Shown here: piece by piece, positions 31,429-49,200 of the stretch
How the letters are laid out: each line of letters starts with the position of its first letter
Numbering within the stretch: the first letter of the stretch is position 1
Origin: a virus
Length of the DNA: 64,000 bases
Reading direction: 5' to 3' (one strand)
IMG/VR virus record: IMGVR_UViG_3300025018_000100
Translations under genes and position numbers: made by a program
The notes under the pieces: generated by a model
The model's input: only the letters and a program-made list of their open reading frames with translations
Told to the model about the DNA's origin: nothing
Database searches by the model: none

Positions 31429-31606
31429 CCAGGGAAACCCTCTAGCGAAAGTTAGGGGGTTTTTTTGTGTATAAATCAATTAATTATATTATTACCCGCC
31501 GTAGGCGAGTTATCAGTTAAGTTGTTAAAAATAAACGATAATTTAGTTGTTGACATTGCTTTATTTTACCGATACAGTCTATATATCGAAACAAAGGAGA
31601 AAGACT

Positions 31607-31840
31607 ATGTCACGTCACAGCAAACAAGAAACCTTGATCGCTACATCTTTTGTAAAAGAAACAGAAAAAAGTTGGGTGGTCATGTTTTACGGTACTAAAG
31701 CAGTCCTAGCCAAGAGCATGTGCGAACATGATGGGGGTTTGCAATTTTCCATCCCTAAATGGTTGTACAAGAAAATCATGGAAGCAGAAGAAAAAAATAC
31801 AGATAACTTCTATGAAGAACAAGCTTTGTTGCTGGCTTAA
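31607..31840 (+). CDS. Hypothetical protein (cassette)
   Basis: Start re-called at the AAGGAG-preceded ATG; promoter TTGACA-17-TACAGT. Confidence 0.75.
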   Translation: MSRHSKQETLIATSFVKETEKSWVVMFYGTKAVLAKSMCEHDGGLQFSIPKWLYKKIMEAEEKNTDNFYEEQALLLA

Positions 31841-32047
31841 CATAAAAGTCTCTTAGAGATATCCAGGCTCTAAGAGACTTTTTTTGTTTAATTTTCAATA
31901 GGTTAGCTGGCGACCCGCCGTAGGCGGGTTAGCGGCTAACACGTTGATAACAAACAATAATTATTTTGTTGACACACTAAGGGAAAAATCTTATATTATT
32001 TATATCAAGACGAGGCAATAATGCCACATAGGAAAAGGAGAATTACT

Positions 32048-32260
32048 ATGCTACGCCGGATTGAGAATGTTAACTGCAAAGATGAAAATGGCCTGTCAAG
32101 CACAATTGCTGTTATTCAAAAAGCGGTAGACAATAAGGGTAATACCCTTGCTTATAGCGTTGCTTTCGCAGACGGCACAACCGTTGGCAATATTCCCCGG
32201 CTGGGAGAGGCTCGCGCTATCGCAGTCAAAGGTAAGGTTCAACAGCAAGAAGCTGCATAA
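32048..32260 (+). CDS. Hypothetical protein (cassette)
   Basis: AAGGAG RBS; TTGACA promoter. Confidence 0.7.
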   Translation: MLRRIENVNCKDENGLSSTIAVIQKAVDNKGNTLAYSVAFADGTTVGNIPRLGEARAIAVKGKVQQQEAA

Positions 32261-32558
32261 TTCCACAATTTCCAAAGGGTAAGAGATATGACACATAATT
32301 CAAGAGACTCCCCTTAAAAAGAAGACAAGGGTTGTGGGATTTTGGTAAAGCAACCGTTAATTTAGATAGATATATAAGAGAAAATAAAAAAACGTCCAGC
32401 ACATGCTGGACGTTTTTTTATTTATTTTTCAATAGGTTAGGTGACGACCCGCCTACGGCGGGTTAGCGGCTAAACCATTGTTTTTAAACAATAATTTAGT
32501 TGTTGACGTAATACTTTTTAAGACTTATATTAATAACATAATTATTAGGAGAAAAAAT

Positions 32559-33116
32559 ATGCGAAGCCCTTTAGAATTAGTTAGCATGCTTAATAGATGT
32601 GGTCTTATTAAGATCGGGGAAGGGTCTTATGCTGAGGTCTATGCTAAAAAGACAAAAGACTTTGCTTATAAAGTAGGTAATATGTACCTTGATGAAAATG
32701 ATGGTTGGTTTCAGTATGCTAAATTAGCAAAAAAGCATAGTGCTAATAATCCGTACTTCCCTGAAATTAGTTTTATTAGGGGATCTGCAAGGGCTTATAT
32801 AGCTAAAATGGAATTTATTCCAAAAACGTTATTTGATATTAGAGACGGTGTTTATAATAAGTCATATGAAATTGATGATAGTTTATGGCAAGTATTTTAC
32901 GAAGACAAAAATTCAACACTTGTACAAAAATTATATGAACAGAACCCAGAATTTTTTAAATTTTTAAAAGATGAAAAATTCTGGGAAGCTGTATCACTTA
33001 TCAAGGAATATATGAAAGATTTTCCCGATATGGATTTAGATATACACGACCGTAATATAATGATAAGAGAAAACGGGCAAATAGTAATTACAGACCCTTA
33101 CCTAGAAGGGTATTAA
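32559..33116 (+). CDS. Ser/Thr protein kinase, T7 gp0.7-like
   Basis: IGEGSYAEVY, YKVG, NPYFPEI, DIHDRNIM, ITDP; start re-called at the AGGAG-preceded ATG. Confidence 0.8.
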   Translation: MRSPLELVSMLNRCGLIKIGEGSYAEVYAKKTKDFAYKVGNMYLDENDGWFQYAKLAKKHSANNPYFPEISFIRGSARAYIAKMEFIPKTLFDIRDGVYNKSYEIDDSLWQVFYEDKNSTLVQKLYEQNPEFFKFLKDEKFWEAVSLIKEYMKDFPDMDLDIHDRNIMIRENGQIVITDPYLEGY

Positions 33117-46103: not shown

Positions 46104-46233
46104 ATAAAATACACATTTTAACCTTAGAACAGGCGGAATTAATTCCGCCTGTTTTTTTGTTTATTTTTCAATAGTTTAAGTGACGACCCGCCGTAGGCGG
46201 GTTAGCGGCTAACCTGTTGATTAGCCTCACTTT

Positions 46234-46425
46234 TTACCAGCCAATATTTTTAGATGCTGATACCGCTTCACTTTGAGAAATTTCAGACTTTTTACGCCAC
46301 ATAACTTCCTCATAGTAGGCCCCTAATTCGCCCGTAAAAATTTCATCGTTAAGAGGTGCAAATCTCCACCTTTGCAGTAATTCTTGATAAGTAGCTTTAT
46401 CTATCCATTCCTTAGAATTATTCAT
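46234..46425 (-). CDS. Hypothetical protein
   Basis: WIDKATYQELLQRWRFAP...ASKNIGW; stop abuts an element arm. Confidence 0.7.
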   Translation of the reverse strand: MNNSKEWIDKATYQELLQRWRFAPLNDEIFTGELGAYYEEVMWRKKSEISQSEAVSASKNIGW

Positions 46426-46774
46426 GATTTTTTTTCCAATTCTTGTTGCAATTCATAAAAGAGTTGATAGCAACTATTATTACAATATCCATTAATACAG
46501 CAATAATGCCAGCTACCCAATGAACGTTAATAAAAAAATGTAGAGTAATAGCAACTATTGATAAAATACCTGCTAAAACAGTTACACAAAAAAGCAAAAA
46601 CATAGATACACACCAAGAGCTATAAGCTACATCTAAAAGATTTGCATAGAAGGTATATTTACAAGCCTCTCGTTTGCTTTTTGCTTGTTTAATTTTGACT
46701 CTCAAACTATCAGATAAATTTTCAACAAAATCATCCAATCTATATAATACTTCTAGCGGTGAAAACATAACCAA
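46418..46774 (-). CDS. Hypothetical membrane protein
   Basis: AAGGAG RBS, two TM segments. Confidence 0.65.
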   Translation of the reverse strand: MVMFSPLEVLYRLDDFVENLSDSLRVKIKQAKSKREACKYTFYANLLDVAYSSWCVSMFLLFCVTVLAGILSIVAITLHFFINVHWVAGIIAVLMDIVIIVAINSFMNCNKNWKKNHE

Positions 46775-46899
46775 TTATCTCCTTATTTAAGATACGTATA
46801 CTATAATACATTTTGCATGAAATGCAACAACTAAATTAGTCAACTATTTCAATAGGTTAGGTGACAACCCGCCGTAGGCGGGTGGCCAGTTAAGCAACT

Positions 46900-49200
46900 G
46901 AAATCATTCAGTTTTTTGGCCGACGCTAGTTAAGAATGATAACGAGTCGCAACTCCGTTGCACGTCAATTTAATGTGAAATACTGTCATTCACACTAGTA
47001 TTGTGTGTAATATTTGGTCGAGCGTTTGCTAACTAAACGCTCGCACCAGTAGAAATTCGACTAGTAGAAAATCGAACGTGTGCAGCAAAATGCAAGTACT
47101 TTTTTGAAGTACTTAGTCTACCGTTACGTGCAAATGAAATTTGCAAACTATAGTAACGTGTAAGTACTTTTTTGAAAAATAGACGACTAGTAGATAACCG
47201 AACAATTATTTTTATAACTAGTAGATAACCGAACAATTATTTCTACCTTAAGTAGAATATCTACCTAAAAAAAATGCTACGTACCCAACTAAGAGTACGT
47301 AGCATCATATGTCTTCTAGGAAAATACAGTGCCTAGCTCACTACCATACGGCTGACCTGGACGGTTACAGGCGCGAATAGACGAGAGTGTTAATACCATC
47401 TTTTTCAAGCGATCAACAACATAGCTCATTTAAACGCTCATCGAGTAGATAATATACTCGGTTAATACAATTAGTTGCTATACTAATTTCTAACTTTATT
47501 ATAACCAACTAATCGTTCTTTTATACATTAGCGCACTTCGTGCGCATTAAGCAAATAGTTAGAACAATCTTAAAAGTACAACAACAAAATTGTAAAAATG
47601 TTCATATACTAAGTGATAATCTACTTATAAGTCAATAGACTATCTCTTAGTATATGTAGTAAATTATTCTAGTATAACACATTCATGATAATTGTGGTTA
47701 TCCTAGTAATAAATGTGCTTACGAGTGTTATCACGTTGCGCGTTGTACCAACGAGTAACTGCTACCAAGCTGACAACGCTAGTGATCAGCAAACCAGCTA
47801 AAATTGCCCACGCATACCACATTGCTCTATCTCCTCTAGTAGATTATGTGTAATTATAACAAACTAAATAGTAGCTAGCAAGTAAAAAATAAAAGTACGT
47901 GGTCTAACTAGTCGCACTTCGTGCGAATACGCTGCGCTAAATAAAAAGTACTACTTGAGAGTAGACTTTCAAAATAAGCGCCAGCACTTGACCAAAAAAT
48001 ATCTAGGAAAGTGCTTCTCTCTTTTTTAATGATCTAGTAATAGATAGTTAGTCTATTGTAAATCACTAAAGTCTACTATCCACCAACTAGTATCATTATT
48101 AAATCTAGCTATTAAGTGACCATTTGAATAAAAACGAATTGAATTATCATTCTCTACTACTTTGTCTGCAAAAATACGAAAACGTTCACCCTGTCCGTCT
48201 TTGATCTGGTATTGATTCATTTTATTTCTCCTTATATAGATAATAGCAAATAATTAACCAACTAGCAAATGAAATTTGCAATAATCTGGTTAGCGCACGA
48301 AGTGCGCAAGCTATCCCCATACCCACCCGGTTATTATAACACACATTAGACTGACAAGCAATCATAATGTGCAGTTATTTACTAGCGAAATTAGTTCGCA
48401 CGTTAATTTTCGTGCTGTATGCTTTGTGCAATTGCACGAAACGTTGCCATTTCATGGCATAGCGTAAAAAACGGAGTTTTTAAGGGTAAATAGTTAAAAA
48501 TATCCAGTAAATGCTAAAAAAGTTTATTTTTTGCAGTAATCAAGCAAAAAAATCTTGACATATATCGCCTGTTGCGCTGCCTAAGCGAACTCCGTTCGCC
48601 GTAGTCAAACGTTTATTCTAATAATCTTATAAACCATCTTACCATCATTTTAAAAGAACTAGATAGTAGTTAATAGTATGTCTATAATTCTAATAATTTT
48701 ATATTTTTATCTAGATATACTAATAGCCGACACACCTAATGGCGTGTCGGCTGCGTTAGTGGCGCTCTAGTTGAATCTCCGTTCAACATACGAGCGCAAT
48801 ATAACGTAATTGGATACTTTACTCTCATATTACACGTATGTACCTACGTTATATAACCATGTTATAAACTAGATAATCCGTCATATAACCATGTTATATT
48901 CGTCTAGATTCTACGAATCCTGGTTAACACGTTACGTTTCACCTTTCGTACTGTGTTTTCATATTCACCTAGAGAGACTTATGGGGGAACGGGAGGCGTC
49001 TGACCCTACGTTATATAGACCTAAGAAATTTCATTTCTTTTTTTTTAGACCCTATCCAAAACATACGCTTATTGTATCACATTTTTTTTTCATAGTTAAG
49101 TGTTTGCAGGACTTCTTAGATAATTTTAGATAATTTTCTGTTTGTCTTCAAACTATCTTTTATGATTTTTTACGTTTAATTTTTAGTTTTTTAATTTGCT
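46900..49200. repeat. Largely non-coding repeat/hairpin-rich region (injection-stop-signal-like)
   Basis: 26-bp direct repeat at 47186/47217; AAGTACTTTTTTGAA twice; GNA-triloop hairpins at 46949, 47531, 47912, 48293, 48585; no convincing long ORF. Confidence 0.65.

Follow-up and report, generated by a model that had tools for sequence, protein, structure and literature searches.

A repeat array that bounds small gene cassettes

We studied a repeated DNA element in a 64,000-nucleotide stretch (hereafter, the window) of the IMG/VR virus record IMGVR_UViG_3300025018_000100, which is part of a metagenomic phage contig of ~200 kb (ENA ERZ27293386). The element forms an array of 22 copies that bound 21 small gene cassettes at 31476-46901 (plus strand), likely the pre-early region of a T5-like phage. 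Its 17-nt core, ACCCGCCGTAGGCGGGT (ACCCGCC-GTA-GGCGGGT), has 22 matches with up to two mismatches in the 64-kb window, where 0.01 were expected from shuffled sequence. The cores span 31494-46883 and none lies outside that interval, so that the 22 copies confined to one interval, as reported in a preliminary description made from the letters of the window, hold up.

The full unit is 53 bp long (TCAAn4TTAG-n6-ACCCGCC-GTA-GGCGGGT-n6-CTAAn4TTGA), and the 22 units occupy 31476-46901 (15.4 kb). The symmetric layout of two arms at 6-bp spacing that had been described was recovered in 21 of the 22 copies at up to two mismatches. It breaks down at the edges of the array, where the first copy (31476-31528) has two degenerate arms and one core mismatch and the right arm of the last copy (46849-46901) is degenerate. 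The left and right 6-nt spacers are unlike (nTGrCG and TrGnGG, respectively), and the direction that they give to the element is constant in all copies although nine of the cassettes lie on the minus strand. The single orientation claimed earlier thus applies to the element, as defined by its asymmetric spacers, but not to the loop, which reads TAC rather than GTA in three copies (cores at 32447, 34169 and 45216) whose spacers are not inverted.

All 18 copies that are covered by independent gene calls are intergenic, as had been claimed, and exactly one element stands at each boundary between transcription units. The 21 intervals between elements measure 334-1431 bp (mean 732) and hold one to four small genes each, or two tRNAs, or, in one case, no called gene. 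Copies 7 and 8 have 83 identical bases in common, and other pairs of copies within the window are alike in one half (93% identity) and not in the other. The conserved unit is longer than first described: each arm runs on into one of three flank modules, which are named for the individual copies in the following list (all plus strand).

Element 1, 31476-31528: edge copy; left, terminator T-run; right, promoter with its -35 hexamer 21 nt from the arm
Element 2, 31895-31947: left, terminator and T-tract; right, rightward promoter
Element 3, 32429-32481: flipped loop (TAC); left, terminator; right, promoter
Element 4, 33646-33698: left arm within an A-tract and local hairpin; right, promoter
Element 5, 34151-34203: flipped loop; convergent genes; left, terminator; right, arm hairpin and T-tract; no promoter
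Element 6, 35075-35127: divergent genes; promoter on each side
Element 7, 35816-35868: left arm within an A-tract and 12-bp hairpin; the 83-bp exact match with element 8
Element 8, 36684-36736: left arm in a hairpin; right, promoter
Element 9, 37531-37583: next cassette carries tRNA-Leu and tRNA-Met
Element 10, 38663-38715
Element 11, 39563-39615
Element 12, 40047-40099: upstream of an A2-paralogue cassette
Element 13, 40631-40683: convergent genes; right arm in an 8-bp hairpin, with T-tract
Element 14, 42062-42114: between two minus-strand cassettes; left, leftward promoter; right, arm hairpin
Element 15, 42563-42615: layout as element 14
Element 16, 43121-43173: divergent genes
Element 17, 43539-43591: left arm in a perfect 10-bp hairpin that includes the spacer
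Element 18, 44460-44512: upstream of dmp
Element 19, 45198-45250: flipped loop
Element 20, 45532-45584
Element 21, 46168-46220: convergent genes
Element 22, 46849-46901: edge copy; right arm degenerate

Phage context and genes of the array

The window carries a T5-type structural module (terminase, portal, protease-capsid fusion, tail tube and tape measure), and its terminase is ~40% identical to terminases of Demerecviridae whose hosts are Serratia, Pectobacterium and Vibrio. Judged by these sequences, the phage is a distant relative of T5. The named phage relatives all infect Proteobacteria, the phylum whose members have integration host factor (IHF). The genes that bear on the array are the following.

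40236-40568, plus strand: homologue of A2, the T5 pre-early DNA-binding protein (32% identity, E 4e-8; precomputed Pfam assignment PF26822)
45699-46103: A2 paralogue within the array
51846-52310, minus strand: A2 paralogue outside the array
44602-45156, plus strand: homologue of Dmp, the T5 pre-early 5'-deoxyribonucleotidase (31% identity, E 2e-14; PF26880)
43685-44413, plus strand: 242-aa protein, a conserved neighbour of dmp in this phage group (1659 homologues)
40965-41537, minus strand: HNH endonuclease within the array, the only nuclease-like gene seen there

The 242-aa protein served as our handle for finding relatives. It was also considered as a candidate nuclease and rejected in that role, as its sequence has no match in Pfam or PDB and it also occurs in relatives that lack the element. 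Along the contig, late genes are followed by the array and then by a tRNA-bearing early region, an order that matches T5 if the terminal repeat collapsed in the assembly; from this we infer that the array probably represents the DNA of the first-step transfer, that is, the pre-early region.

The arms resemble strong IHF sites

The preliminary description had read the arms as IHF sites. When compared to the IHF consensus WATCAANNNNTTR, 16 of the 44 window arms were exact and 26 had a single mismatch, the exact matches comprising 13 of the 22 right arms and 3 of the 22 left arms (the other 19 left arms had one mismatch). In the relatives described below, 101 of 242 arms were exact and 119 had one mismatch. 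The density of the 13-mer WATCAANNNNTTR was six times higher in the array than outside it (1.10 vs 0.19 per kb), and all but one of the matches within the array fall in arms. The consensus together with an upstream A-tract is the mark of strong IHF sites (PMC9519438, PMC1874591). In the relatives, an A-rich tract lies at -16 to -11 (52-67% A), 8 nt before the W of the consensus, and the H' site of lambda attP, which we examined directly, consists of A6, 8 nt and TATCAAtttgTTG. At the A-tract position of the window arms we found A4 or longer in 14 of 42 arms and T4 or longer in 10 of 42. The consensus matches and the A-tract at lambda H' spacing not only agree with the earlier reading of the arms but strengthen it.

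The likeness to lambda is one of the single site, WATCAANNNNTTR with an A-tract 8 nt upstream in both, and does not extend to the arrangement. Here two sites are inverted round a GC-rich centre of 14-29 bp with their TTR ends inward, which is the opposite of H2 and H' round the attP core, there are neither Int arm sites nor an integrase, and the element comes in ~20 copies per genome. A second comparison is with the intergenic BIME-1 (bacterial interspersed mosaic element) or RIP (repetitive IHF-binding palindromic) repeats of E. coli, which are built as REP (repetitive extragenic palindrome), IHF site, REP. Both kinds of repeat are intergenic, combine GC-rich palindromes with an IHF site and stand at the ends of transcription units. 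The phage element differs in that it has the reversed order (IHF site, GC palindrome, IHF site), is not chromosomal and is unrelated in sequence.

Across 142 elements, the left and right arms did not covary, their variable positions being no more complementary than in shuffled pairings, indicating that what is conserved in the arms is their sequence, in the manner of protein sites, rather than the ability to pair with each other in one long hairpin. A single long hairpin or cruciform running across both arms was rejected on this ground. A phage-encoded HU or IHF gene was not found in four relatives. In one sub-lineage (the elements of L141/L142 (G004), with L065, L117, L017, L082 and L110 also listed), an outer inverted copy doubles each arm to give CTAAGTCGTTGA-ata-TCAACGACTTAG; the outer n4 bases covary with the inner arm, so that each such element has four arms and three potential hairpins.

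Promoters and terminators at fixed places beside the arms

Which of the three flank modules adjoins an arm is set by the neighbouring gene. Where the 5' end of a gene faces the element, we found an AT-rich stretch and a sigma-70-type promoter. For 13 window arms, the distance from the arm to the start of the -35 hexamer is exactly 21 nt (39 nt from the end of the core hairpin); 21 nt is also the modal distance in the relatives. A helical periodicity of the arm-promoter distances (21, 31, 41) was considered and rejected, as it was not significant without the 20-22 class. Where the 3' end of a gene faces the element, the flank takes one of two forms, either a separate GC hairpin terminator with its T-run abutting the arm or a tract of A5-6 followed by 8 nt, with the arm folded in a local hairpin of 8-12 bp. 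Across lineages, these local arm hairpins use at least four pairing registers. The T-runs lie ~20 nt outside the arms and face outward, and those scored as outward-facing terminators occupy the place that the A-tract of an IHF site would have. The core itself is not an intrinsic terminator (it is followed by TAGCGG... and no T-run), and a canonical terminator lies upstream of the arm in nine copies.

Flanks of this kind raise the question of whether the element acts in RNA, with the core and arm hairpins at message ends serving as processing sites, stabilisers or terminators. Single strands of the element fold strongly (z-scores -4.6 to -6.2), the arm hairpins are restricted to sides on which the element is met by the 3' end of a gene, and the three stem mismatches that we examined by eye would all be G-U pairs in the sense transcript of that gene. 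However, three of three such cases has a chance probability of 0.125, and a function in RNA accords poorly with an orientation that is constant whatever the gene direction, with a core that has no T-run, with the nine copies that already have a canonical terminator upstream of the arm, with arms that do not covary and with a centre that is not a hairpin in most relatives. Rfam gave no match above threshold apart from two tRNAs. We regard an RNA-level role as quite improbable.

The centre is GC-rich, and a hairpin only locally

In the window phage and its closest relative (L015, see below), the centre is a clean hairpin with a 7-bp stem and a 3-nt loop. Most relatives have a GC-rich block of 20 nt whose middle is conserved as GGCGCC or GGCCGG and whose self-complementarity is weak (mean stem 4.2, vs 3.6 in shuffles). 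A centre conserved as a hairpin throughout the family is at best weakly supported by this difference and was rejected. As far as can be judged from the sequences compared, what unites the whole family is a GC-rich segment between two AT-rich, putatively bending sites, and the potential to form a hairpin or cruciform is a local elaboration. Cruciform extrusion, as entertained in the preliminary description, consequently does not carry over to the family, in which only the window phage and its closest relative have a true hairpin and most centres are merely GC-rich. The analogy drawn there with the promoters of phage N4 found no support within the window: the hairpin geometry of promoters for the N4 virion RNA polymerase (5-7 bp stem, 3-nt loop) fits the window phage only, most relatives have no hairpin, and no gene for a virion RNA polymerase was seen in the window. 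A link to the nick sites of T5 was also tried and dropped, the annotated motif ccctgcgc being only loosely like the GGCGCC of the relatives and the window core lacking GCGC. The flipped loops show that exchange within the 7-bp stems does occur.

A family of arrays in T5-like viruses

To find relatives, we searched viral contigs for paired arms separated by a gap of variable length. The same arms occur in at least 25 contigs of uncultured T5-like viruses, with one to seven copies per fetched stretch, around a centre of 14-23 nt that is 70-100% GC in DNA otherwise 36-51% GC. Whole contigs hold single arrays: 16 copies at 20.8-31.4 kb of a 78-kb contig, 17 copies at 4.5-15.9 kb of a 63-kb contig and 12 copies at 14-24 kb of a 40-kb contig. 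These arrays span 10-12 kb, and shuffles give none. Nearly all element-bearing contigs encode dmp and several A2 paralogues beside the elements; A2 paralogues co-occur with the arrays in the window and in the relatives alike. The arm sequence is kept across phages whose proteins are only 30-50% identical, and the centre changes.

The closest relative, L015, is a 2.2-kb Logan contig (SRR30872644) with 68% identity on the 242-aa protein. Its three copies have arms, spacers and geometry as in the window and the core ACCCCCC-(TAC or GTA)-GGGGGGT, in which the loop is found in both orientations. The symmetric change from G:C to C:G in all L015 copies indicates that copies evolve in concert within a genome.

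Beyond these relatives, several searches were negative. Megablast of the array against 50,697 phage records gave no match and hence no near siblings, and none of the collections searched contained a nearly identical genome. The exact core, or the core with its spacers, gave only chance single matches in GC-rich DNA among viral, metagenome and genome contigs, and neither the 6+17+6 architecture pattern nor the arm-hairpin 18-mer matched any viral contig. The element is absent from T5 bases 1-12000 and, with one mismatch allowed in each arm, from the T5 terminal repeat, and three distant members of the group (L009, L011 and L012; 50-55% identity on the 242-aa protein) have other repeats instead. 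The left terminal repeat of T5, with its non-coding repeats and its injection-stop region, likewise has repeat-rich DNA in the dmp/A2 region, with proposed host-factor binding sites; those repeats differ in being clustered in three untranslated blocks, as inverted repeats with paired DnaA boxes (Davison 2020, bioRxiv 10.1101/866236). No paper describing such arrays in T5-like phages was found in the literature. Short-read unitigs of the same or related phages (L008, Logan SRR6053076, 927 bp; L015) start and stop in or at cores. As the repeats break assemblies, such arrays are probably under-represented in short-read metagenomes.

A palindromic, multicopy repeat that is uniform within a genome and limited to a plastic region could be a selfish sequence, similar to a miniature inverted-repeat transposable element, that spreads in non-essential intergenic DNA and does nothing for the phage. 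Such a repeat would not be expected to stand once at each boundary between transcription units, at a fixed spacing to promoters and terminators and in constant orientation, or to conserve its arm while its centre changes across phages as diverged as these. Neither target-site duplications nor a transposase were seen. We give this explanation the least weight of those considered here and hold it to be very improbable.

The conservation pattern could also be that of an operator. The arms, the GC centre or both might bind a phage protein (an A2 paralogue or another small pre-early protein) instead of IHF, and could in this way shut off pre-early transcription or govern the two-step DNA entry of T5-type phages. 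Almost all arrays found contain A2 paralogues, the arms vary less than the IHF consensus would allow, and a centre that is uniform within a genome and differs between genomes, with a symmetric change in every L015 copy, is the pattern that co-evolution with a dimeric protein would leave. T5 requires A1 and A2 for pre-early shut-off and for second-step transfer (PMC10644984). On the other side, the centres of several relatives vary from copy to copy in one genome, which fits poorly with one specific operator, the arm fits the IHF consensus and A-tract spacing position by position, and T5 has A2 but no element. We consider operators for a phage protein unlikely, while leaving them a substantial minority of the probability.

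Cassettes are reordered in relatives, with element boundaries

The preliminary description had proposed that the element serves in shuffling, to be recognised by gain, loss or reordering of cassettes with breakpoints at the element in sibling phages. We found this pattern in relatives and not in siblings. Three relatives (L038, L105 and L059) have cassettes in common at 65-87% nucleotide identity, in the orders A-B-C-D-E, D-C-B-A-E and B-C-A-E, respectively. All permuted blocks are in one orientation and their ends lie in elements. Clustering of cassette proteins from 14 sources revealed the same permutation for dmp, the 242-aa family, the A2 paralogues and the D-E pair. Alignments end within 25 nt of an element in 21 of 72 cases, when compared to 7.8 expected (P < 2e-4). 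The window differs from L015 in having one copy fewer of a 91-aa gene cassette and no MazG-like gene, and both differences are bounded by elements. In three-way alignments, one junction switches between partners midway through the centre and another does so past the right arm, suggesting that homologous exchange within the ~90-bp common element fits better than an enzyme acting at a fixed point.

A dedicated, integron-like system, in which a phage enzyme not recognised as such cuts the GC centre by site or structure with IHF as accessory factor, would account for some of these observations. Permutation without inversion needs excision and reinsertion, or several exchanges; IHF sites flanking a crossover core recall lambda attP; the loop flips show exchange within the 7-bp stems; and the array contains an HNH endonuclease. 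Against such a system, the switch points differ between junctions, the IHF-type sites are turned the opposite way to those of attP (TTR end beside the centre), and the cassettes have their own promoters, unlike integron cassettes. Four relatives, including one that is 84% complete but has only two elements, yielded no tyrosine (PF00589) or serine recombinase, and no recombinase was seen among the large window open reading frames that were scanned. A dedicated, site-specific form of the recombination site suggested earlier is not upheld by these results, and we rate such a system as very unlikely.

The nearest published concept is that of the promoter-early stem-loops (PeSLs) of T4-type phages (Arbiol et al. 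2010, PMC2839356; Comeau et al. 2014, PMC4122927). As here, PeSLs are composite motifs that recur in a plastic region between early genes that are small and non-essential, and their stem-loop lies just upstream of a sigma-70-type promoter in many intergenic spaces, an arrangement that we found for 13 arms. Between related phages, cassettes are gained, lost and exchanged at the motifs, probably by homologous recombination. PeSLs belong to T4-type myoviruses, however, and the window element to a T5-like phage. The conserved part is here a mirrored pair of IHF-type sites with a GC centre and not a promoter or terminator, and the window hairpin is not a terminator, separate terminator hairpins lying upstream of the left arm where present. 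The window element also keeps one orientation whatever the gene direction and can stand between convergent genes without a promoter. The element works like a PeSL but lacks the terminator hairpin and the promoter core and occurs in another phage group, and is thus a variant of the concept rather than a member. Integron attC sites are similar in being imperfect palindromes that bound mobile gene cassettes; they differ in that no integron integrase was found here (PF00589, four relatives), that the cassettes have their own promoters and that the position of the breakpoint is not fixed.

A proposed boundary element of the pre-early region

We favour, with a confidence slightly above even, the reading that the repeat is a DNA-level boundary element of the pre-early region, in which two inverted IHF-type sites round a GC centre double as homology for shuffling. 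Each copy would present two inverted IHF sites of the high-affinity type, TTR ends inward, round a short GC-rich centre. Host IHF would bind both arms and bend the DNA sharply on either side of the stiff GC segment, and these bends would shape the DNA upstream of each strong early promoter. There is precedent in phage Mu, where IHF bound upstream of the early promoter activates the promoter and relieves its silencing by H-NS. The element may further insulate neighbouring transcription units on AT-rich DNA. Being near-identical, direct and 0.3-1.4 kb apart, some 20 copies would act as sites of homologous exchange in the manner of PeSLs. Such exchange would duplicate, delete and reorder whole promoter-gene-terminator cassettes and homogenise the copies of each genome. 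Roles in promoter activation or anti-silencing, in insulation, in IHF titration and in DNA entry, as well as cruciform extrusion and A2 binding, are each inferred or speculative.

Several observations weigh against this reading. The arms are more constrained than the IHF consensus demands (TTAG vs TTR, with biased n4 positions), which could mean that a different or additional protein binds, and many left arms have a T-tract or a local hairpin in place of a clean A-tract. IHF binding to the arms is itself a prediction. The length of the centre is constant within a genome and differs between lineages (14, 18, 20, 23 and 29 nt), so that no constant helical phase relates the two proposed bends. 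Roughly one copy in three lacks a promoter on at least one side. Finally, reordering was seen in relatives and not in siblings of the window genome, for which the closest relative is one 2.2-kb fragment, and selection for uniform promoters and terminators could yield some of the apparent mosaicism.

A more elaborate possibility, which we think doubtful and to which we assign a small probability, is that the whole array is a nucleoprotein scaffold. About 40 IHF dimers would fold the first-entering DNA into insulated loops, and an unrecognised phage enzyme (of A1/A2 or HNH type) would cut the GC centres in a programmed shuffling of cassettes. If so, the loops could serve the two-step DNA entry, the protection of free ends or the prevention of silencing.

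The boundary element that we favour bears on how the first 8-10% of T5-type DNA is expressed and controlled, which is a long-standing open question for which the element family offers a testable handle. A host architectural protein may be recruited ~40 times over 15 kb. Repeat-mediated shuffling of cassettes, known from T4-type phages, would reach a second large group of phages, through an element of different construction, and could explain the variability of pre-early takeover gene sets. The delimited cassettes also provide a catalogue of self-contained candidates for host takeover and anti-defence functions.

Other features of the window and its relatives

Two paralogous cassettes in the array (32478-33116 and 35206-35802) encode proteins with weak similarity to a T7 gp0.7-type family of protein kinases and host-transcription shut-off proteins (phrog_15752). 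The only cassette without a called gene lies at 45255-45490 on the minus strand. It has a promoter-like TAGACA-17-TATATT at 45490-45462 and a strong terminator with a 20-bp stem at 45306-45260, giving a predicted RNA of ~200 nt that contains a T-arm-like GGTTCGAT. This RNA, a candidate for a new small RNA, is recognised by neither ARAGORN nor Rfam. In the early tRNA region, ARAGORN called a tRNA with anticodon CTA (labelled Pyl) at 61062-61137 on the minus strand, possibly an amber-suppressor tRNA.

Just left of the array, at 30874-31006, we noticed a tandem palindrome, GAATGAT-T-ATCATTC, in ~5 copies of a 28-bp unit. Partial look-alikes, GAGAATCATTCTC, were seen in L012 (10727-10750, 11553-11576 and 11806-11829) and L011 (13349-13412). 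Both relatives are distant and lack the IHF-type element, and the look-alikes, which lie in their pre-early regions, may represent a second conserved protein-binding motif in this phage group.

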